Shown piece after piece: positions 884-19,313 of a DNA stretch of 19,774 bases. A program made the position numbers and the translations under genes. Source of the stretch: a virus. Positions within the stretch are counted from its first letter, which is position 1; each line of letters begins with the position of its first letter. The notes beneath the pieces were generated by a model. It did no database searches, had not been told where the DNA came from, and was given only the letters and a program-made list of their open reading frames with translations. The stretch lies in UHGV virus genome UHGV-0311028; one strand, written 5' to 3'.

Positions 884-1219
884 TTATTTTACATCCCAAG
901 GTAGTTCCTCAAGAGAGAAGACTAATTCATTATCAATGATTTCGTATTCTGCATAACCTTCAACCTCTCCTGAGAAGTTATTGTCAACGCATCCTTCATA
1001 ATAGCTATATGGTGCTATAAAGTGAAACCCATATTCATCTATCTCTGTGATTTCAAAATTGTAGTAATCGTAAGAATATCGAATATCATCATCAGAAATA
1101 GAACTAAGTACATAGTTATTAAATTTATCGGAATGCTTAACGATAAGCTCTGACAACGCGTCAAGATTCTCTGGAGAGATATTTCCTAACGGTAATCTGT
1201 ACTCAACGGCATTAATCAT
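884..1219 (-). CDS. Hypothetical acidic protein (moron between Q/late promoter and holin)
   Basis: 111-codon ORF with a strong SD (AAAAAGGAGGTTGT before the ATG). AT-rich relative to neighbours. The product is rich in D/E and aromatic residues (SYDYYNFEITEIDEYGFHFIAPYSYYEG) with no family I recognise. Bracketed by terminator hairpins at 1271-1296 and 844-878. Confidence 0.6.
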   Translation of the reverse strand: MINAVEYRLPLGNISPENLDALSELIVKHSDKFNNYVLSSISDDDIRYSYDYYNFEITEIDEYGFHFIAPYSYYEGCVDNNFSGEVEGYAEYEIIDNELVFSLEELPWDVK

Positions 1220-8015: not shown

Positions 8016-8690
8016 ATGAAAACAATCCATGACATCCGGCGGTCTAACGCCAGAAAACTGAGAGATGGTGTTGGCGGGAATTCTTCCTTTGCCACTATGA
8101 TTGATCGCGAGCCAACCCAGACCAGCAGGTTTATGGGAGATGGTGCTACTAAAAATATCGGTGACAGCATGGCACGACACATCGAAAAATGTTTCGACCT
8201 GCCTGTCGGATGGCTCGATCAAGAACACCAGACAACGAACATCACAAAAAAACCTGATGTTTCAATCACTAATAAACAAATCACATTAGTCCCTGTCATA
8301 TCATGGGTACAGGCCGGAGCATGGAAAGAAGTTGGATATTCTGAGGTTGATTTGAGCACAGCAGAAACGTATCCCTGCCCTGTCCCCTGTGGGGAAATGA
8401 CTTATATCTTGCGGGTGATAGGTGATTCAATGATTGATGAGTACCGCCCGGGAGACATGATTTTTGTCGATCCTGAAGTACCTGCCTGCCACGGTGACGA
8501 CGTTATTGCATTGATGCACGATACAGGTGAAACCACCTTCAAAAGGTTGATAGAAGATGGGACACAGCGTTATCTCAAAGCGTTAAACCCAAACTGGCCT
8601 GAGCCTTACATTAAGATCAACGGTAATTGCTCTATAATTGGTACAGTGATTTTCTCAGGAAAACCAAGAAGATACAAAATCAAAGCCTAA
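8016..8690 (+). CDS. cI: CI-type prophage repressor with N-terminal HTH and C-terminal S24 (LexA-like) autopeptidase domain
   Basis: C-terminal RVIGDSMIDEYRPGDMIFVD...TFKRLIEDG carries the S24 Ser (GDSM) and Lys (KR) pattern. Divergent from cro. Followed by an intrinsic terminator. Confidence 0.85.
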   Translation: MKTIHDIRRSNARKLRDGVGGNSSFATMIDREPTQTSRFMGDGATKNIGDSMARHIEKCFDLPVGWLDQEHQTTNITKKPDVSITNKQITLVPVISWVQAGAWKEVGYSEVDLSTAETYPCPVPCGEMTYILRVIGDSMIDEYRPGDMIFVDPEVPACHGDDVIALMHDTGETTFKRLIEDGTQRYLKALNPNWPEPYIKINGNCSIIGTVIFSGKPRRYKIKA

Positions 8691-9179: not shown

Positions 9180-9776
9180 ATGGATTGGCATGACCTTATA
9201 TCAAAGGTAATTATCGGACTTGTTACAGGCTCAATCGCAGCTTACTTAACTGCGCGATATGCACTCGGCCGTTATTATAAAGAAAAATGGTGGGACAAAA
9301 GAATAGATTTGTATACGCAATTAGTTGACTGTGTTTATCTTCTAAAAAACACAGCTGACTATTGGTATAAACATGAGTTACATCACGCTTCACAATTCCC
9401 AACCTACTTTAGTTACAAATCAAAAGAAGAAAATGAAATCCTTAGCAAATCTTTCTCTAATGAGCTTGAAAAACTCAGTAGAATAGGTGAGCTATCTTCA
9501 TTATTCTTAACAGAAGAGTGTGGGGATAAAATCCGTTCATTCATTGAAAATGAAGAAAATCTATTTATACAATGGGAGTTTGATAGTATAGAGTTGATAG
9601 ATGCCCACAAGTCAAGACTTGATAAATTAAAAGTATTACTAGACGATATTATCTCTGAAGCAAAGAGAGAGCTTAAGGTCAATAAAAAACATAACAGCCT
9701 AAAGAATATAAAGTGGTCCATAACTATGCCAGACCAAAAAAATGATGAGCCAATTAATTATTACGACAATCATTAA
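9180..9776 (+). CDS. Hypothetical membrane-anchored protein (AT-rich moron downstream of cI); possible superinfection-exclusion/abortive-infection function
   Basis: 198 aa with one N-terminal hydrophobic helix (VIIGLVTGSIAAYLTARYAL) and a charged, probably helical remainder. SD AGGA 8 nt before the ATG. Has its own terminator at 9787-9808. Strongly AT-rich. Confidence 0.6.
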   Translation: MDWHDLISKVIIGLVTGSIAAYLTARYALGRYYKEKWWDKRIDLYTQLVDCVYLLKNTADYWYKHELHHASQFPTYFSYKSKEENEILSKSFSNELEKLSRIGELSSLFLTEECGDKIRSFIENEENLFIQWEFDSIELIDAHKSRLDKLKVLLDDIISEAKRELKVNKKHNSLKNIKWSITMPDQKNDEPINYYDNH

Positions 9777-11393: not shown

Positions 11394-11743
11394 TGGAACC
11401 ATACAGCCTCACGCTAGATGAGGCCTGTCATTTTCTCAAGATATCCAGACCGACTGCCATTAACTGGATACGCACAGGGCGTCTGCAGGCAACACGCAAA
11501 GATCCCACTAAGAATAAATCTCCTTACCTCACAACACGACAAGCCTGCATTGCGGCGCTTCAGTCTCCGCTGCATACTGTCCAGGTGAGCGCGGGTGATG
11601 GCATAACAGAGGAAAGAAAATGTCACTCTTCCGCAGAGGTGAAATATGGTACGCCAGTTTCACATTGCCGAACGGTAAAAGATTTAAACAGTCTCTTGGA
11701 ACAAAGGACAAAAGGCAGGCGACAGAACTCCATGACAAGCTAA
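11393..11743 (+). CDS. xis: Excisionase (Xis, HTH_17/AlpA-like); 3' end overlaps int and may be shorter than the ORF
   Basis: [37 protein letters not shown] is a typical excisionase/AlpA-type HTH. ATG at 11393 with SD AGAGGTGA and TAATG coupling. Directly upstream of int. Confidence 0.6.
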
Positions 11744-12783
11744 AGGCTGAAGCATGGCGGGTCAGCAAACTTGGTGAAATTCCTGATATAACGTTCGAGG
11801 AAGCGTGTGTCAGGTGGCTTGAAGAGAAAGCACATAAAAAATCACTGGACGATGACAAAAGCCGGATCGGATTCTGGCTTCAACATTTCGCAGGAATGCA
11901 ACTAAGAGACATTACTGAATCAAAAATTTATTCAGCAATGCAGAAAATGACGAACCGGCGTCATGAGGAAAACTGGAAACTCAGGGCAGAAGCATGCAGA
12001 AAAAAAGGGAAACCTGTTCCAGAATACACGCCAAAACCAGCGTCCGTTGCAACGAAGGCTACGCATCTTTCATTTATAAAGGCCCTGCTAAGAGCCGCAG
12101 AGCGTGAATGGAAAATGCTGGATAAGGCACCAATTATTAAAGTGCCTCAACCAAAGAATAAACGGATCCGCTGGCTGGAGCCTCATGAAGCACAAAGGCT
12201 GATTGATGAATGTCCGGAGCCATTAAAGTCTGTTGTTGAATTTGCACTTGCAACAGGCTTAAGACGCTCGAACATCATCAACCTTGAATGGCAACAAATA
12301 GACATGCAGCGCCGGGTGGCATGGATAAACCCGGAAGAGAGTAAATCAAACCGCGCAATTGGCGTTGCGCTGAATGATACTGCATGTCGCGTATTGAAAA
12401 AACAAATCGGGAATCATCACCGTTGGGTATTTGTGTATAAGGAAAGCTGTACCAAACCAGACGGAACGAAAGCGCCAACAGTCAGGAAGATGCGGTATGA
12501 CGCAAACACAGCCTGGAAAGCGGCGCTGAGACGAGCAGGTATTGATGATTTCAGATTTCACGACTTGAGACACACCTGGGCAAGTTGGCTGGTTCAAGCC
12601 GGAGTCCCGTTATCAGTGTTACAGGAAATGGGAGGCTGGGAGTCTATCGAAATGGTTCGTCGATATGCTCACCTCGCACCTAATCACCTTACCGAACACG
12701 CACGGCAAATAGACTCGATTCTGAACCCATCGGTCCCAAATTTGTCCCAGTCAAGAAATAAGGAAGGTACTAATGATGTGTAA
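11620..12783 (+). CDS. int: Tyrosine integrase, P22 Int / DLP12 IntD family
   Basis: 387 aa. N-terminus [34 protein letters not shown] and C-terminal catalytic region [39 protein letters not shown] (R...H-x-x-R...Y) match P22-type integrases from memory. SD AGAGGAAAG. Ends 15 bp from the tRNA-derived att core. Confidence 0.9.
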
Positions 12784-12797
12784 CTTATTGATTTAAA

Positions 12798-12843
12798 TGG
12801 TGCCGATAATAGGAGTCGAACCTACGACCTTCGCATTACGAAT
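12798..12843 (-). other. Attachment-site core: 46 nt identical to the 3' end of a tRNA-Thr(CGU) gene (thrW-type), anticodon loop to CCA; not an intact tRNA
   Basis: The reverse complement reads ATTCGTAATGCGAAGGTCGTAGGTTCGACTCCTATTATCGGCACCA: anticodon CGT, T-arm GGTTCGACTCC, acceptor 3' strand and CCA. The 5' half of the tRNA is absent (the sequence continues tataagaatcc...). Confidence 0.8.
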
Positions 12844-12908
12844 TATAAGAATCCGCTTCTAATTCAAAGCATTACCCCATCAACACTGCGCTCACACGTC
12901 CCACCACA

Positions 12909-13043
12909 TCAAAACATGTAAAGCCTTGCAAGCCATTGTGAGGCCTTATGTGTCTCAGTTTTGTCCCACCTTGTATTACGACTTGCATAGCCAATGAAGA
13001 TCAACGTGACGACAAACGGCGCAGCAGTCTTCTTTTCCTTCAT
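12909..13043 (-). CDS. Possible small ORF (44 aa, hydrophobic core), below the ORF-track cutoff; speculative
   Basis: ATG at 13043-13041 preceded by a purine-rich tract GGGGAAGGGGAAGGGAAAGT. Product MKEKKTAAPFVVTLIFIGYASRNTRWDKTETHKASQWLARLYMF. No homology recognised. Confidence 0.2.
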   Translation of the reverse strand: MKEKKTAAPFVVTLIFIGYASRNTRWDKTETHKASQWLARLYMF

Positions 13044-13233: not shown

Positions 13234-16200
13234 TTATCTCGTAAAATTAGTTTTATGACTTCCTGTTAGCTGACTGTCTTCATAATAAAATGCCCCACTA
13301 AACTCCTGTCGACCATAATGATGACTTGATGTGAGTGAGCCCCCTATAACATCTTTTTCACCTAATAATGTCCAAACGATTTCAAAACCATTTTCCCTTA
13401 ACATTGTTAAAAATGGTTCTTTTTTAACAAGTAGATACGGCTTTGAAGCATATACAGCTTCAGCTGCAAAGCAAACCATAGTTCCATTTTCATCATTGAA
13501 GCTACCCTCTACTTCCCCATTTTTTAAGCCCATCTTTTCAAAGATTAAGTTGCTAGGCTTCAAAAAATTCAAAGCTTCTATTTTTGATTTGTCGAACTCC
13601 TCTCCCCACAAATAATTAATCGAAGTGACACTAACATCAGCTATCTTAGCTCCAGACTCCCGGTCTGTTACCGAAGTCCAGTCAGAACCAGCATAATAAT
13701 CTGATTTAAAAGACTTAAATGCTTCGGACCAATAGTACTCCCTATTAAATAATTGGTATCTATCAGTACCTTCCGGCATCCACCTGCCCATAAAGTCTTG
13801 AGCTATTGCCCAACATCTAAAATTTTCAAATTCTTCAACTTTAACGATATAACTTCTGATCTGATACCAAACCTCTTTTCGTGGGTGCCCCCAATCATCG
13901 TTTCCAATAATTTTTGGTTCTTTCCATGATGGATAACTTTCTAATACTATCCATTCATCACCATTATCATCTTTAACTTCAATCAAAGCATATGGATTAG
14001 TTATAGTAGTAGAGCTTTGAACCCAGTCTTCATTAGAGCAAGTCCAATCAAACACTTCATCATTAAACCACCACATTTCTTTATTGCTTATTTTTTTCGT
14101 CCCAGTTTCTTTAAGTAAGATAGTGGGATCTATATCTCTTACGTAAGGCTCCCATGGCCCTTGGTATGGGTTTTCCTTTCGGTCGTCACCATAACCTTCA
14201 AAATGAATAAAATTATCGGCTAGCCTTGCCATGTATTCATAATAAGCAATCCATTGGTATTTTTTACCAATCCGTTCTTGGAATTCCTCTCTACGTCCAC
14301 GTCCAGTTCCTATTTGTTGGTCAAAATCACCATGCTTCTCCGGATCCCAACCAAGATCCAGAACACGATTGAATATAAATTGTTGAGCTAGTCGAAGATC
14401 AAAGTGTTTATCAGTTTCCAGCAGATTATTATTATGATCTAGGTATGGCTCTATTTCATTTTCAAACTCACTTAACAGATCGTATGACAATGAATTCTTA
14501 AATAGCTTCTTGCTCGCCTTTATTTCTTCCTGTGTTTTTCTACCGACCACGCTACCCAATTTAATACCTTCACATTTATCATCATAAATGAAAGGATCTG
14601 TGGCATCATATAAATCTTTTTGTTGATCAGTTAGTTTACATTTGAAAGTTTTAAAAACTCGCTTACGGTCAACAGGGGTTTCATTAAACTTGCAACCAGA
14701 CCAATCAGAATGATTATAATTTGTTCCAATAGTATATCGTGAAAAGTCACCACCTTCCATAATCGAGCTCCAGAGTTCCCGATAAGGTTCTTTATCATAA
14801 AGGGACTCTAGTTCCTCTTTTGAAGGAATCTTGTCAGGCCAAATGCTGTTGTAGGGTGGTCTAGTCTTGGATAATTCAATGCTTTCAAGTTCCAATCCAA
14901 GATGATTAGCAAATTCAATAATCTCTCTAGCATAATCTCTAAGTAATATATTTGGATACACATACTCAGAACAAAATACCTTTTGGTAAACAGTTTCGGC
15001 TAAATATTTTAGTTCTTTAATATTATCAGTTCGCAATGTACAACCCAATGCAACTGCAAATATTCTTTCCCAAACGTAAGGATCATTTACACCATAAAAC
15101 TTATCAATTATTTTTCTCAATACAGGAATTCTTGGCTCGAGTAAACTCACTAAAGCCTTGGTTGAGCAATCTCGAAGTTCTCGGTTACTAGAAGTTAAAA
15201 ACCAGCATAAACTAGTTGCAACTAGCTCGATTGACTCATCCGAAACGAAGCTTTTATCTGTTCTGCCCCATGCCCAATCGATTAGATGCCTAAATGCTGA
15301 GTCTTCACTATATTTATATTTAAGTTTTGTAGTCCAACACGAATCTCGATTTCCCAAAGAGTAATCTTTTAGCCAATCATGCAAAAAATTAGCATTAAAG
15401 GGATGGTCAACTAAACCTGAAATAGAGATCACTGCCTCGAGAAAATGATCAAAACTACCTTTAAATTTAAAAACATGTTCATTGATGAAAGGTCTGATTT
15501 TTTCGAAATCAATAGCCTTAATATCTCGCCATATCAAGCTATCAATAAAGGCTTCTAGTAATTTATGATTATTGCTGAACTCCGGCAGAAATTCATAAAG
15601 CTCTTTTCCATACTTTTCTGGCAATTGAATAGAAAGCGCCTCAACTATTCCCGAGTTTGTATAAAAATCACATTCATCATGAAAATATTTTTTCAGACAA
15701 CCATCTGACTTAAATTCATTTTCGATATTTTCAACATCATTTAATAAAAAATTAACAGTTAAATGATCATCAAACCTTTCAAAAGCCACATGAACTACTT
15801 CCTCAGTAGCATTATCATTATTTCTCACTATGCCTTTAGTCAATAATCCTTCGTCAATCAAGGCGCTGAGGAAATTTTTATCTGTAACATAATCATTAAC
15901 TACAGATTGAACCACTGAGTGAGCATCTCTAAGTGAAATACTATTACTACCAATCTCTAATTTGAATTTTATGATTTCGTTGAGAGCATCTTTTACAAGA
16001 GGAAAACTGGGATCGAAATCATATTTTCTTGGCGATGCCAATGATTTATTCACCCCTTCCACTAAAAAGTTAAAAATATTTGAAATCCCATTAAACCCAA
16101 CAGGTACTTTGGTTAAACCATTTTTCTTAATGCCTTCACACAATAACTTAAGAAATAGAGGGTTTTTAAACTCTGGATTAAGATTCGGTGATGAAGGCCT

Positions 16201-17688
16201 CTCTATATTGTAATAATCATAAAATAGACTAACCGCTTCTAACTCAACATTCTGAAATCCAATATGTTCATGAATTTCAAAATTATTTCGCTCAACATTC
16301 TCATGTGAAATTGTTACATTTCTATATGTTGTTCTGACTGACATTATCAGACCAAGCCATTCAAAGCATCTGATTTCATCGACAAAACTGTTAATATTGT
16401 CATTCCAGAATTTATTTCCATTACCTTCATTAATAGCATCAATGAAAACCAAGACTCTTTTTCCTGTTTTTTTGCCATATAAATTCAGTTTTTCCAGGAA
16501 TTCACGAGAAGTGATTTTAAGCTGTAATCTCTTGAAGATCTGTGACCATGGAGATTCATCTGAAGTAAGTTGTTGCCCTAGTATGAGTAGAGAAGGATAT
16601 CCAGAAGCAATTCGATTTTTAATCACATCAGCCAGTAAATGAGACTTACCAATTCCAGCTTTTCCTTCGAGAAGTAAGAATGGGTTGTTAGCCAACTTTA
16701 CTGTTGTTGAATTAATGAATGTACGTAATTCATTGCACGCATAGTCAAGTTCCCGAAGCATTCGCAGAGTAGATGAATACTTATCACTGTAATGCTTGGT
16801 TTCACCTACTTGTTCTGACTTTTCTCGGAGTTCCCACAATATTGATTCCGCTCCGCCAATAGCTGTCTGGCAGCTGTCAACATAGTTATTAAATTTATTT
16901 ATAGGAATTTGATCTAATTTAGAAAAATTAAGCCCTTGATATATATCCGCAATTTGATTTAAGGACTCGTCTATTACAGATAATTCTGAGTAAATTACAT
17001 CGCAACTATGTAACCTCTTTCTAGTCATCAGAAAATTATCTATATGTGAGTAAAATATTTTAGCAAAATCATCAGTTCTACCGAGACCATCAAATATCTC
17101 TGCTATTTCTAGCTTTACGTTGAGTTCGGGTGTGTATCGGCCTCCCAAGTCAGCTATTGCTTGACTATTTTTTTCATTTAACCAATCATCACTCAAGTGA
17201 AAAGTTAGTTTCTCATCTATAGACCGCAAAATAAGTTTAACTTGAATAAGCTCTTCATTAATATCGAATATTTTTTCTTTATACGTTTCTTCGATATGTA
17301 GCTTTTTTAACTTCGAACAATTATTGATTTTTAACGATAACATCTCATAAAAAAGGCTGAGTTGTTGTTGAGTTGGGGGGGTGATGCTTGGATATTCTTT
17401 GAACTTGTCTAATAATATCCCTTTGTCAGGAAACTCTTTAAACAAGATGTGTTCATTCAACATCTCAAACAATGGTTCAGAATGATAAAATGGAATTGCT
17501 CCACTTTCTACTGGATATGTTTCTTCAAACTCAATTGCCGTCTCTTCAATTAGTTGATATAATCTATCCACATATCTTTTTTGGGGGAATAATGCTTTCT
17601 TAATACAACCATATCCTTCTTGAGAGATGAATTGATCAATAAGTTTAGTTGCTACATAAGTTGCCACTGTAATTGATATAAGTTCCAT
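13234..17688 (-). CDS. Large P-loop NTPase with NACHT/STAND-like motifs (1484 aa); candidate antiphage defence protein; N- and C-terminal domains unassigned
   Basis: Uninterrupted 4455-nt ORF. ATG at 17688-17686 with upstream GGAAGAAG. Walker A GKAGIGKS (aa 342-349, nt 16642-16665), Walker B-like VLVFIDAINE (aa 412-421) and a sensor-1-like LIMSVRTT (aa 447-454). Strongly AT-rich relative to int and pin. Plus-strand ORFs inside it are short shadows. Confidence 0.85.
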   Translation of the reverse strand: MELISITVATYVATKLIDQFISQEGYGCIKKALFPQKRYVDRLYQLIEETAIEFEETYPVESGAIPFYHSEPLFEMLNEHILFKEFPDKGILLDKFKEYPSITPPTQQQLSLFYEMLSLKINNCSKLKKLHIEETYKEKIFDINEELIQVKLILRSIDEKLTFHLSDDWLNEKNSQAIADLGGRYTPELNVKLEIAEIFDGLGRTDDFAKIFYSHIDNFLMTRKRLHSCDVIYSELSVIDESLNQIADIYQGLNFSKLDQIPINKFNNYVDSCQTAIGGAESILWELREKSEQVGETKHYSDKYSSTLRMLRELDYACNELRTFINSTTVKLANNPFLLLEGKAGIGKSHLLADVIKNRIASGYPSLLILGQQLTSDESPWSQIFKRLQLKITSREFLEKLNLYGKKTGKRVLVFIDAINEGNGNKFWNDNINSFVDEIRCFEWLGLIMSVRTTYRNVTISHENVERNNFEIHEHIGFQNVELEAVSLFYDYYNIERPSSPNLNPEFKNPLFLKLLCEGIKKNGLTKVPVGFNGISNIFNFLVEGVNKSLASPRKYDFDPSFPLVKDALNEIIKFKLEIGSNSISLRDAHSVVQSVVNDYVTDKNFLSALIDEGLLTKGIVRNNDNATEEVVHVAFERFDDHLTVNFLLNDVENIENEFKSDGCLKKYFHDECDFYTNSGIVEALSIQLPEKYGKELYEFLPEFSNNHKLLEAFIDSLIWRDIKAIDFEKIRPFINEHVFKFKGSFDHFLEAVISISGLVDHPFNANFLHDWLKDYSLGNRDSCWTTKLKYKYSEDSAFRHLIDWAWGRTDKSFVSDESIELVATSLCWFLTSSNRELRDCSTKALVSLLEPRIPVLRKIIDKFYGVNDPYVWERIFAVALGCTLRTDNIKELKYLAETVYQKVFCSEYVYPNILLRDYAREIIEFANHLGLELESIELSKTRPPYNSIWPDKIPSKEELESLYDKEPYRELWSSIMEGGDFSRYTIGTNYNHSDWSGCKFNETPVDRKRVFKTFKCKLTDQQKDLYDATDPFIYDDKCEGIKLGSVVGRKTQEEIKASKKLFKNSLSYDLLSEFENEIEPYLDHNNNLLETDKHFDLRLAQQFIFNRVLDLGWDPEKHGDFDQQIGTGRGRREEFQERIGKKYQWIAYYEYMARLADNFIHFEGYGDDRKENPYQGPWEPYVRDIDPTILLKETGTKKISNKEMWWFNDEVFDWTCSNEDWVQSSTTITNPYALIEVKDDNGDEWIVLESYPSWKEPKIIGNDDWGHPRKEVWYQIRSYIVKVEEFENFRCWAIAQDFMGRWMPEGTDRYQLFNREYYWSEAFKSFKSDYYAGSDWTSVTDRESGAKIADVSVTSINYLWGEEFDKSKIEALNFLKPSNLIFEKMGLKNGEVEGSFNDENGTMVCFAAEAVYASKPYLLVKKEPFLTMLRENGFEIVWTLLGEKDVIGGSLTSSHHYGRQEFSGAFYYEDSQLTGSHKTNFTR

Positions 17689-18210
17689 GGTTAGCTTCTT
17701 CCAATAATTAAAATTTTACAAAGCGTTTATGCCTTACAATATGTATTGTATCTCACCGTAAAACATATTTATATGGTTTTAAACCTATCTGTAAATCTTG
17801 ACACCTTGGCAAGAACCTAATCCTACATTTTAATATCAGTCTATATAATATAGCCAGTGTCATAATAATCGGGCTTATCATAGTTAAGTATTCGCCTCCG
17901 ATATCCCAATGAGATAAGTAAGTCATCAGTGTTATAAATGAAAAGATCACATTTTTCAAAGAGTTATTATGATGGAATATTATTCAAAACGCAATGTAGC
18001 TGAAACGAGTCTGAGTTTAACATCCGCTCCTAGTACATAGTAGTCCCAGGGACAGTGGCGTAAAGTCATAGATGGCCGGTGGGAGGTGGTGGAAATCCTC
18101 TCATGCAAAAAATACATAAAATCGATAACGGCTGGAAATCATTCAATACTCGCACTATCGAAAGTTCACCAGCCAACCGCGCACGATCTTGCATACGACA
18201 TGCTACGGTT

Positions 18211-18765
18211 TCATTTATCTCCGACCGGAAACTTCTTATACAGTGTCGATATACCAACATCATAGATGATCGCCACCTTCTGGCGAGGAACGCCTGATGC
18301 AATTAATCGCCCGGCCTGCGCCCATTGTTCTGGTGTAAGTTTGGGACGACGTCCACCAATTCGTCCCTGTGCGCGAGCAGCTTCCAGTCCAGCTTTTGTT
18401 CGTTCAACAATCAGTTCTCGTTCCATTTCAGCCAAGGCCCCCATCACATGAAAGAAAAAACGCCCCATTGGTGTGCTGGTATCAATTGAATCCGTCAGAC
18501 TACGAAAGTTGATGCCTCGTTCGCGCAACTCCTCCACCAACACGACAAGATGCCGCATACTACGCCCCAGCCGATCCAGCTTCCAGACAACCAGAGTGTC
18601 ACCTGCCGATAATGTCCTGAGCAGTTTTTTCAGTCCCGGCCTTTCGGACTTTGTGCCGCTTATCTTGTCTTCAAAAATCAGCTCGCATCCTGCACAGTTC
18701 AGCGCATTACGTTGTAGATCTGTGTTCTGGTCATTTGTTGATACGCGTACATAGCCAATAAGCAT
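18211..18765 (-). CDS. pin: Serine DNA invertase, Pin/Gin/Hin/Cin family
   Basis: MLIGYVRVSTNDQNTDLQRNALN...DRLGRS... carries the resolvase/invertase catalytic serine motif (YVRVST) and a C-terminal HTH, and matches Pin of e14 from memory. SD GGGGGA before the ATG at 18765-18763. The ORF-track start at 18801 adds 12 unlikely residues. Confidence 0.9.
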   Translation of the reverse strand: MLIGYVRVSTNDQNTDLQRNALNCAGCELIFEDKISGTKSERPGLKKLLRTLSAGDTLVVWKLDRLGRSMRHLVVLVEELRERGINFRSLTDSIDTSTPMGRFFFHVMGALAEMERELIVERTKAGLEAARAQGRIGGRRPKLTPEQWAQAGRLIASGVPRQKVAIIYDVGISTLYKKFPVGDK

Positions 18766-18819
18766 GGTAGATCCCCCTGACAAAAGCAGGAATGATGCCA
18801 TTTGCTCGTTATTTCTGCA

Positions 18820-18845
18820 TTTTCATAAACGTTGGTTTGGGAGAA
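18820..18845. other. Candidate invertase crossover site (pix/gix-like), TTTTCATAAACGTTGGTTTGGGAGAA
   Basis: Imperfect dyad with AAAC / GGTTT half-sites resembling the gix/hix consensus (TTATCCAAAACC..GGTTT..GATAA) as recalled. Located between the pin 5' end and the start of the tail-fibre variable exon, as in Mu gixR. Confidence 0.45.
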
Positions 18846-19313
18846 GGCTCTGCATTACCTGTTGGTGTGCCTGTTCCATGGCCTTCAGCCACACCGCCAA
18901 CAGGCTGGCTGAAATGCAACGGTGCGGCTTTTTCTGCTGAAGAATACCCGGAACTGGCAAAGGCTTATCCGACAAATAAATTGCCTGATTTACGTGGTGA
19001 GTTTATTCGTGGCTGGGATGACGGGCGCGGTATTGATGCAGGACGTGTTTTATTGAGCATTCAGACAGGGATGCTGGAAAAACACCGCCATATTGTTGTT
19101 GCCAATGATGGTTACGACACAAAAGATGAATGGGAACTGGCTACGATTTTCAAAAAAACATACACACAAGGACGGGGACTTGATGCCACAAATACAGGAG
19201 GGAGTCTGATCCCATCACCGACACTTCATTCACGAGGGAGTATCGGTAATACTGGCGGGAGTGAAACCCGTCCACGAAATATTGCATTTAACTATATCGT
19301 GAGGGCTGCATAA
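18846..19313 (+). CDS. Tail-fibre protein C-terminal variable exon (alternative, currently pin-proximal and unlinked to a constant 5' part in this window)
   Basis: LPVGVPVPWPSATPPTGWLKCNGAAFSAEEYPELAKAYPTNKLPDLRGEFIRGWDDGRGIDAGR is the conserved C-terminal motif of Mu S / P2 H / e14 StfE-type tail fibres. No credible start of its own: the ORF-track start at 18792 lies upstream of the crossover site. Confidence 0.65.
   Translation, partial: GSALPVGVPVPWPSATPPTGWLKCNGAAFSAEEYPELAKAYPTNKLPDLRGEFIRGWDDGRGIDAGRVLLSIQTGMLEKHRHIVVANDGYDTKDEWELATIFKKTYTQGRGLDATNTGGSLIPSPTLHSRGSIGNTGGSETRPRNIAFNYIVRAA

Follow-up and report, generated by a model that had tools for sequence, protein, structure and literature searches.

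Which function is encoded by the single long, AT-rich gene between the DNA invertase gene and the attachment site of a temperate phage, and does this gene represent a novel antiphage defence system? This question is raised by the virus genome UHGV-0311028, a stretch of 19,774 nucleotides (nt) that is referred to at its full length as the window. A preliminary description, made from the sequence alone, had interpreted the minus-strand open reading frame (ORF) of 1484 amino acids (aa) at positions 13234 to 17688 as a NACHT/STAND-like nucleoside triphosphatase (NTPase) and as a candidate single-gene antiphage defence system. NCBIfam, PADLOC and the PDB entry 9O4E all assign the protein to Avs2, in agreement with the proposed defence function. 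The ORF is almost certainly avs2, a natural allele of EcAvs2 from Escherichia coli, i.e., a STAND-superfamily NTPase that serves as an antiphage pattern-recognition receptor and consists of one protein.

The NCBIfam equivalog NF041813 (AVAST type 2 anti-phage system protein Avs2) matches the protein with 1690.4 bits compared to a cutoff of 1000, the alignment running from aa 178 to 1476 of the protein and over all 1317 positions of the model. Moreover, six Avs2 models of PADLOC match, the best of them (PDLC02164) with 1748.9 bits over aa 22-1483, and the sequence search of the PDB resulted in a sole match, 9O4E chain A, termed 'Avs2', which was aligned over aa 1-1484 of 1484 with 77 substitutions and zero insertions or deletions (indels), corresponding to 94.8% identity. 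The 9O4E sequence, reconstructed from the printed alignments, is an exact match to the avs2 product of E. coli strain H8 (WP_063118745.1), which is the accession given for EcAvs2 in a 2023 preprint. Furthermore, a full-length avs2 copy at ≥95% identity, annotated as avs2, is present in 87 of 5426 complete E. coli genomes (RefSeq), and the best of these copies shows 99.9% DNA identity to the window gene. The window gene is already known, both by its RefSeq annotation and by a close homologue with a published structure.

In Pfam, the whole protein yielded only P-loop/STAND matches below threshold (nSTAND6, NPHP3_N, NB-ARC and NACHT), the best being nSTAND6 with 18.9 bits compared to a cutoff of 27.7. 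Pfam by itself leaves the protein seemingly novel, and it is the combination of NCBIfam, PADLOC and PDB that settles its identity. The match to Pfam NACHT (PF05729) is restricted to the P-loop (aa 338-357; E = 0.12) and reaches 12.6 bits, below the gathering cutoff of 26.7, by which membership in NACHT was rejected. The STAND part of the earlier assignment is retained, the NACHT clade is not. Also the novelty suggested in the preliminary description is refuted, as profile and structure searches place the whole protein in a characterized family, the outcome it had itself named as speaking against it.

The gene and its sequence motifs are as follows:
13234..17688, minus strand: avs2, AVAST type 2 antiviral STAND NTPase, allele of EcAvs2, identified by ORF, NCBIfam, PADLOC and PDB match
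17695..17702, minus strand: Shine-Dalgarno-like GGAAGAAG, read from the sequence and followed by the 6-nt spacer CTAACC and the ATG
16642..16665, minus strand: Walker A / P-loop GKAGIGKS, aa 342-349, with the K348 codon at 16645-16647
16426..16455, minus strand: Walker B block VLVFIDAINE, aa 412-421, the same in four of four alleles compared

The minus-strand ORF runs uninterrupted over 4455 nt from an ATG at 17688-17686, preceded by a ribosome-binding site, to a TAA, and its translation contains no internal stop. These features were confirmed at the places given earlier, as were the three motifs GKAGIGKS, VLVFIDAINE and LIMSVRTT, the last of which occupies aa 447-454. It had also been noticed that the ORF is far more AT-rich than the flanking integrase (int) and pin genes, and this is reflected in a G+C content of 34.5% for avs2 compared to 46.5% for int, 49.7% for pin and 47.1% for the remaining window; in 500-nt steps the G+C content stays at 0.31-0.38 all along the ORF. 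An open frame of 4455 nt at 34.5% G+C cannot have arisen by chance. Besides avs2, no ORF of at least 70 aa was found between att and pin, which fits a single-gene system.

For EcAvs2 it was shown that it defends E. coli against the phages T7, PhiV-1, ZL19 and Pal009 (Evans et al., Nat Commun 2026, PMC13601566). In co-expression screens covering the whole genomes of PhiV-1 and ZL19, no gene other than the large terminase triggered EcAvs2 toxicity, the ATPase domain of the terminase alone being sufficient for activation, and for Pal009 it was shown that Ksap1 activates EcAvs2 besides the terminase (PMC13601566). Purified EcAvs2 forms oligomers only with terminase present, and cryo-electron microscopy (cryo-EM) at 2.3 Å revealed a flat C4 tetramer assembled via the ATP-bound NTPase domains, in which the terminase ATPase domain is enclosed by the helical extension, the TPR domain and the beta-rich C-terminal sensor and the EcAvs2-terminase interface contains a third, 'bridging' ATP (PMC13601566). 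The exchange K348A, which had been named in the preliminary description as a control, is the published EcAvs2 mutant with abolished defence, and E1362A reduces defence partly; the contacts to the terminase are redundant, and most single alanine mutants still defend (PMC13601566).

Projected on the window, these data define the following parts of the protein:
17209..17688, minus strand: N-terminal effector domain, all-alpha, about aa 1-160, the boundary at aa 160 being approximate
16699..17208, minus strand: helical extension connecting effector and NTPase, about aa 161-330, boundaries approximate, interface role from PMC13601566
13234..16008, minus strand: rest of the STAND module, TPR domain and beta-rich C-terminal sensor, about aa 561-1484, the order taken from the cryo-EM description
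13603..13605, minus strand: codon 1362, Gly here and Glu in EcAvs2, a published terminase-contact residue

The C-terminal part of about 1000 aa, in which no TPR periodicity had been recognized and whose sensor had been considered as undescribed, corresponds to a solved TPR domain, seen in the EcAvs2 structure, and a solved beta-rich terminase-binding sensor (PMC13601566), so neither statement can be maintained. The suggestion that the effector may be undescribed has proven correct, as the N-terminal ~160 aa are called uncharacterized in the same study (PMC13601566).

On the basis of the 94.8% sequence identity, we infer that the EcAvs2 mechanism can be carried over to the window allele. Avs2 would be present in the lysogen in an inactive state. 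Upon expression of the large terminase by a tailed phage, the TPR domain, the C-terminal beta-rich sensor and the helical extension would clasp the terminase ATPase domain, and the bridging ATP would close the interface between both proteins. The ATP-bound NTPase domains would then assemble into a flat C4 tetramer, thereby gathering four N-terminal effector domains, and the host cell would die before the phage cycle ends (abortive infection). As cargo of a temperate phage, avs2 would presumably shield the lysogen from other phages.

The comparison with EcAvs2 shows which parts of the protein are constrained. K348, the Walker B residue D417 as well as D981, T1128, R1130, R1132, W1266, E1364, E1444 and E1462 are conserved in the window allele, and the published interface and bridging-ATP residues are unchanged in eight of nine cases, the exception being E1362G. 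The glycine at position 1362 is common to the window allele and to those of an integrated prophage copy (L001) and of a complete phage replicon (L005, see below) and thereby marks an allele group. The substitutions, including E1362G, are concentrated in the helical extension (aa 206-281), in the TPR domain and in the C-terminal sensor, and the uncommon N-terminal effector is shared by both proteins. The ratio of non-synonymous to synonymous substitution rates (dN/dS) was determined pairwise after Nei-Gojobori against the EcAvs2 allele, i.e., for one pair with small counts, and amounts to 0.24 overall. By region, using our own partition in which the domain boundaries after aa 330 are arbitrary, the following values were obtained:
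aa 1-160, effector: identity to EcAvs2 98.1%, dN/dS 0.06
aa 161-330, helical extension: identity to EcAvs2 87.1%, dN/dS 0.43, the most divergent segment
aa 331-560, NTPase: identity to EcAvs2 98.7%, dN/dS 0.04
aa 561-1000, TPR: identity to EcAvs2 94.8%, dN/dS 0.35
aa 1001-1484, C-terminal sensor: identity to EcAvs2 94.6%, dN/dS 0.33

Within aa 200-285 of the helical extension the ratio climbs to 0.53. The overall value together with the low values of NTPase and effector shows that avs2 is under selection. The distribution is reminiscent of immune receptors, in which the signalling and killing modules are fixed and the ligand-binding surfaces drift or diversify, although for the allele studied here this pattern is suggestive only. 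The avs2 gene of L001 (NZ_OZ547541.1, 15216-19688), which is 99.9% identical to the window gene on the DNA level, is annotated with 1490 aa; beyond residue 1481 the two products differ and that of L001 is six residues longer, which points to a small indel shortly upstream of the stop codon.

The N-terminal ~160 aa of EcAvs2 were described as an uncharacterized effector with no clear enzymatic function; this domain is absent from the cryo-EM map, occurs in fusion with eight or more other systems and reportedly resembles amyloid-signalling proteins in its first 15 residues (PMC13601566). The effector (aa 1-160) lies outside the NCBIfam Avs2 model, the match of which starts at aa 178, and Pfam at E ≤ 10 gave zero matches for the isolated domain; a Pfam match of the helical extension to SesA (E = 0.2) was judged as meaningless. 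A word-index homologue search with the effector returned Avs2 N-terminal fragments only. A profile built from Avs2 N-termini and searched against 1.84 billion cluster representatives identified 318 proteins at E ≤ 0.001, with the domain being N-terminal in all of them. The wider family became visible because this profile search was exhaustive and not a word-index search. The lengths of the proteins carrying the domain cluster around 870, 1250 and 1400-1490 aa, and the fusion partners in the sampled cases comprise Avs2 sensors, NB-ARC+TPR STAND proteins, a NACHT-like protein and a PIN-TPR-GreABC-type protein, in agreement with PMC13601566.

Within 91 homologues the best-conserved effector positions are F67, Y68, L127, L77, F113, P105, L43, I140 and F141; nearly all conserved positions are hydrophobic, and no polar constellation hinting at catalysis was found in this set. 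An effector of the Mrr/Cap4 nuclease, SIR2, TIR or protease type was rejected, as aa 1-160 show neither a profile match nor a conserved catalytic polar set. AlphaFold2 predicts from an alignment of 35 sequences an all-alpha core at aa 37-165 with a predicted local distance difference test score (pLDDT) of ~82-90, and a helix at aa 4-24 with a pLDDT <50, i.e., the helix is predicted but its docking is not confident. A first model from 16 sequences had a pLDDT of 66.6, and extension to 35 sequences improved the core, not the N-terminal helix. Structural searches with the effector model returned no homologue and no enzyme-like match, and membership in the HeLo, MLKL four-helix bundle or plant NLR coiled-coil families was rejected, as no structural similarity to a solved member was detected. 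The helix aa 4-24, in which I, T, V and A are abundant, was rejected as a classical transmembrane segment, with a maximal 19-residue Kyte-Doolittle mean of 1.33 and a low hydrophobic moment of 0.15-0.29.

The best guess is that the effector acts as a non-enzymatic, proximity-activated all-alpha killing module, rather than as nuclease, NADase or protease, and the published discussion points in the same direction. As a tentative and rather unlikely extension, it might represent a new class of non-enzymatic cell-death modules, in which tetramerization frees the helix aa 4-24 for membrane attack or amyloid-like nucleation. If true, bacteria would possess an equivalent of resistosome or HeLo-type killing that relies on an unrelated fold. 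The analysis of the effector presented here adds nothing qualitatively new beyond what the authors of PMC13601566 stated themselves.

Several observations weigh against the window gene being a functional Avs2 that kills the infected host by such an effector. Abortive infection by a non-enzymatic effector is what we infer, and the effector model is of moderate quality overall (mean pLDDT 71.9; predicted template modelling score 0.57). E1362G affects a published terminase contact and 22 of the 77 differences from EcAvs2 fall into the terminase-touching helical extension, so that judged from the sequence the phage spectrum of the window allele could differ from that of EcAvs2 or be narrower. Finally, a promoter and terminator scan around avs2 gave no enrichment over shuffled sequence and no promoter was assigned. 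Three other explanations were considered. That the protein belongs to a different STAND defence family, i.e., bNACHT or another Avs type, might be read from the weak sub-threshold matches to nSTAND6, NPHP3_N, NB-ARC and NACHT near the P-loop, but none of them attains its gathering score, the Avs2-specific full-length models score with 1690-1749 bits and Avs2 itself is the sole sequence match in the PDB, making this reading hardly conceivable. It is also very improbable that avs2 is a decaying or silent passenger, intact by chance, unexpressed and nonfunctional in the lysogen. The lack of an excess of sigma-70 promoters around avs2 compared to shuffles is what such a passenger would show, and cargo regions of prophages often carry remnants, as exemplified by L001, in which the neighbouring LysR gene and a tail-fibre gene are pseudogenes. 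However, the 4455-nt frame was kept open in DNA of 34.5% G+C, the dN/dS of 0.04-0.06 in effector and NTPase reflects strong purifying selection, 87 complete E. coli genomes retain full-length copies with at least 95% identity, position 1362 is the only one altered among the catalytic and interface residues checked, and the close homologue EcAvs2 works from a plasmid. A pseudogene was rejected by the intact frame, the purifying selection and the conserved residues.

A third explanation accepts the gene as an intact Avs2 allele and assumes that its trigger range was retuned, i.e., that the substitutions in the extension together with E1362G shift the terminases, or Ksap-like proteins, that are recognized, possibly with the result that the large terminase of the carrier phage itself is tolerated. 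The share of the substitutions that falls into aa 161-330 would fit this, this segment being 87.1% identical to EcAvs2 compared to 98-99% in effector and NTPase and showing a dN/dS of 0.43-0.53 compared to 0.04-0.06, as would the facts that E1362 is a published contact residue, that G1362 defines the allele group of the window, L001 and L005, and that avs2 and the large terminase are both encoded by one carrier phage genome. Nevertheless, eight of the nine published interface and bridging-ATP residues are the same as in EcAvs2, defence mostly survives single alanine mutations owing to redundant contacts (PMC13601566), and dN/dS stays below 1 even in the divergent segment, for the one pair and the small counts available. 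Retuning is regarded as rather unlikely for this allele.

Among the known systems EcAvs2 is by far the closest, with 1484 aa, identical Walker A and B motifs, and the same location at the tail-fibre end of a temperate prophage. The loci differ in that pin adjoins the window gene and a tail-fibre assembly gene adjoins avs2 in H8. KpAvs2 belongs to the same family with the same sensor type, senses the large terminase and has the effector-NTPase-sensor layout (Béchon et al., Nat Commun 2024, PMC11564622), and Ksap1 is a further activator of KpAvs2 as well as of EcAvs2. In contrast to the window protein with its rarer non-nuclease effector, KpAvs2 and most Avs2 proteins kill by an N-terminal Mrr-like nuclease acting on double-stranded DNA (PMC11564622). 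Moreover, KpAvs2 is part of an operon with the accessory genes Avap1/2 (PMC11564622), whereas the window avs2 stands alone between att and pin. SeAvs3, EcAvs4 and SeAvs7 are likewise STAND NTPases that tetramerize on a conserved phage protein and gather N-terminal effectors, and Avs3 shares with EcAvs2 a common C-terminal sensor binding the same terminase surface (PMC13601566). They differ by their nuclease effectors and, for Avs3, by an elongated tetramer, whereas EcAvs2 stands out from the other solved Avs proteins by its flat tetramer, the bridging ATP and a different TPR domain (PMC13601566).

The genomic surroundings identify the carrier as a temperate lambdoid, SfV- and e14-like phage, in which avs2 is a foreign low-G+C cargo. 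The window is part of a lambdoid temperate phage encoding endolysin, holin, antiterminator Q, an HNH/DUF968 protein, a KilA-N-type regulator and a replication protein, further a cI-like S24 repressor (8016-8690), an xis-like helix-turn-helix protein and a tyrosine integrase. The cargo slot itself is delimited by the following features:
11620..12783, plus strand: tyrosine integrase of the SfI/SfII/SfV/SfIV type (Pfam Phage_integrase, E = 3e-48)
12798..12843, no strand assigned: attP core, the reverse complement of the 3' end of a tRNA gene, an exact 46/46 match to the annotated attP core of phage SfI
18211..18801, minus strand: pin-type serine DNA invertase (Pfam Resolvase, E = 2e-51, and HTH_7), pinE in L001 and L005
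12781..18202, no strand assigned: low-G+C unit with avs2, ~5.4 kb, 35.3% G+C, from blastn versus the H8 EcAvs2 locus (L003), 96.3%

The int-xis segment shows 96.5-98.3% nucleotide identity to the Shigella phages SfII, SfV, SfI and SfIV, and the attP core begins 15 nt past the int stop. The window is homologous to the integrated copy L001 from 12780 on and to the prophage of strain 0H26 (H31) up to 12843, and the agreement of these two independent breakpoints supports the position of the attP core. ARAGORN detected no tRNA in the window, the att core comprising only the 3' part of the tRNA gene. Together with the G+C profile, the attP core and the pin gene corroborate the earlier view of a foreign, low-G+C phage cargo between pin and att. 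The order int-attP-avs2-pin-tail fibre corresponds to a phage genome in circular or vegetative form or to prophages in tandem. About 130 bp directly beside the attP core (12824-12953), shared by the window, L001 and SfI, are missing in L005, in which homology jumps from 12823 to 12954. An ORF with a tail-collar domain (18792-19313, plus strand) is arranged back to back with pin and overlaps its 5' end by 10 nt, which corresponds to the layout of an invertible switch of tail fibre and host range like those of e14 and Mu.

The slot from the tail-fibre/pin module to the att site of a temperate phage is the same as that of mcrA in e14 and of gtrABC in SfI/SfII/SfV, all of them being lysogenic-conversion or defence genes of atypical composition; the proteins are unrelated to Avs2, McrA being a type IV restriction enzyme and gtrABC an O-antigen glucosylation cassette. 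The analogy with e14 had been drawn before and is seen in the K-12 annotation as pinE-mcrA. In L001, avs2 is the last gene of a lambda-like siphovirus prophage, and in strain H8 it follows the tail-fibre assembly gene without pin. The low-G+C unit, which is what these contexts have in common, takes in 390 nt downstream and ~515 nt upstream of avs2 and leaves out pin. This shows that avs2 moves as a unit of ~5.4 kb between lambda-like siphoviruses and SfV/e14-like myoviruses, always located at the junction of att and tail fibre.

Two further low-G+C islands are present in the window. An ORF of 198 aa (9180-9776, plus strand), situated in an island of 0.32-0.34 G+C, follows directly after the cI-like repressor on the same strand, a slot that corresponds to the position of rexAB in lambda. 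It has no Pfam or PADLOC match and matches only phrog_17948 of 'unknown function', over the full length with E = 6e-95; it is a candidate for a lysogen-expressed moron or defence gene. The other is an ORF of 111 aa (884-1219, minus strand; G+C 0.36-0.41) between antiterminator Q (1405-2157) and holin (427-831), with phrog_13663 of unknown function as sole match. In Shiga toxin phages the slot between Q and the lysis genes holds the toxin genes.

As the gene is annotated as avs2 in RefSeq and a 95%-identical allele is available with defence data, known trigger, mutagenesis and a 2.3 Å structure, the discovery value of the locus is small, and the killing mechanism of the effector is a question of the field already stated in the literature. 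The locus raises another question by its carrier. L005 (NZ_CP172337.1, pCE-O153H30-A), a circular replicon of 44.8 kb that was deposited under the heading of a plasmid, represents the complete genome of an SfV/e14-like temperate myophage with the same int-avs2-pinE order as the window, which also carries iss, emrE and a gene for a Panacea-domain protein downstream of the repressor. It encodes its own large terminase (locus 16797-18530) in addition to avs2, so that sensor and terminase are located on one element. How does a tailed phage that carries a sensor of tailed-phage terminases leave it untriggered in its own lytic cycle? How a prophage-borne terminase sensor avoids firing on the terminase of its carrier is not discussed in PMC13601566. 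Possibilities are that the carrier terminase escapes recognition or is spared by the tuning of the allele, that lytic growth goes along with silencing or inhibition of avs2, or that the cost is accepted. The alleles with G1362 may be tuned in such a way that the terminase of their own carrier phage is tolerated, and the natural allele series, comprising the G1362 group and the divergent helical extension, could be used to map the variation of the sensor against the range of terminases.

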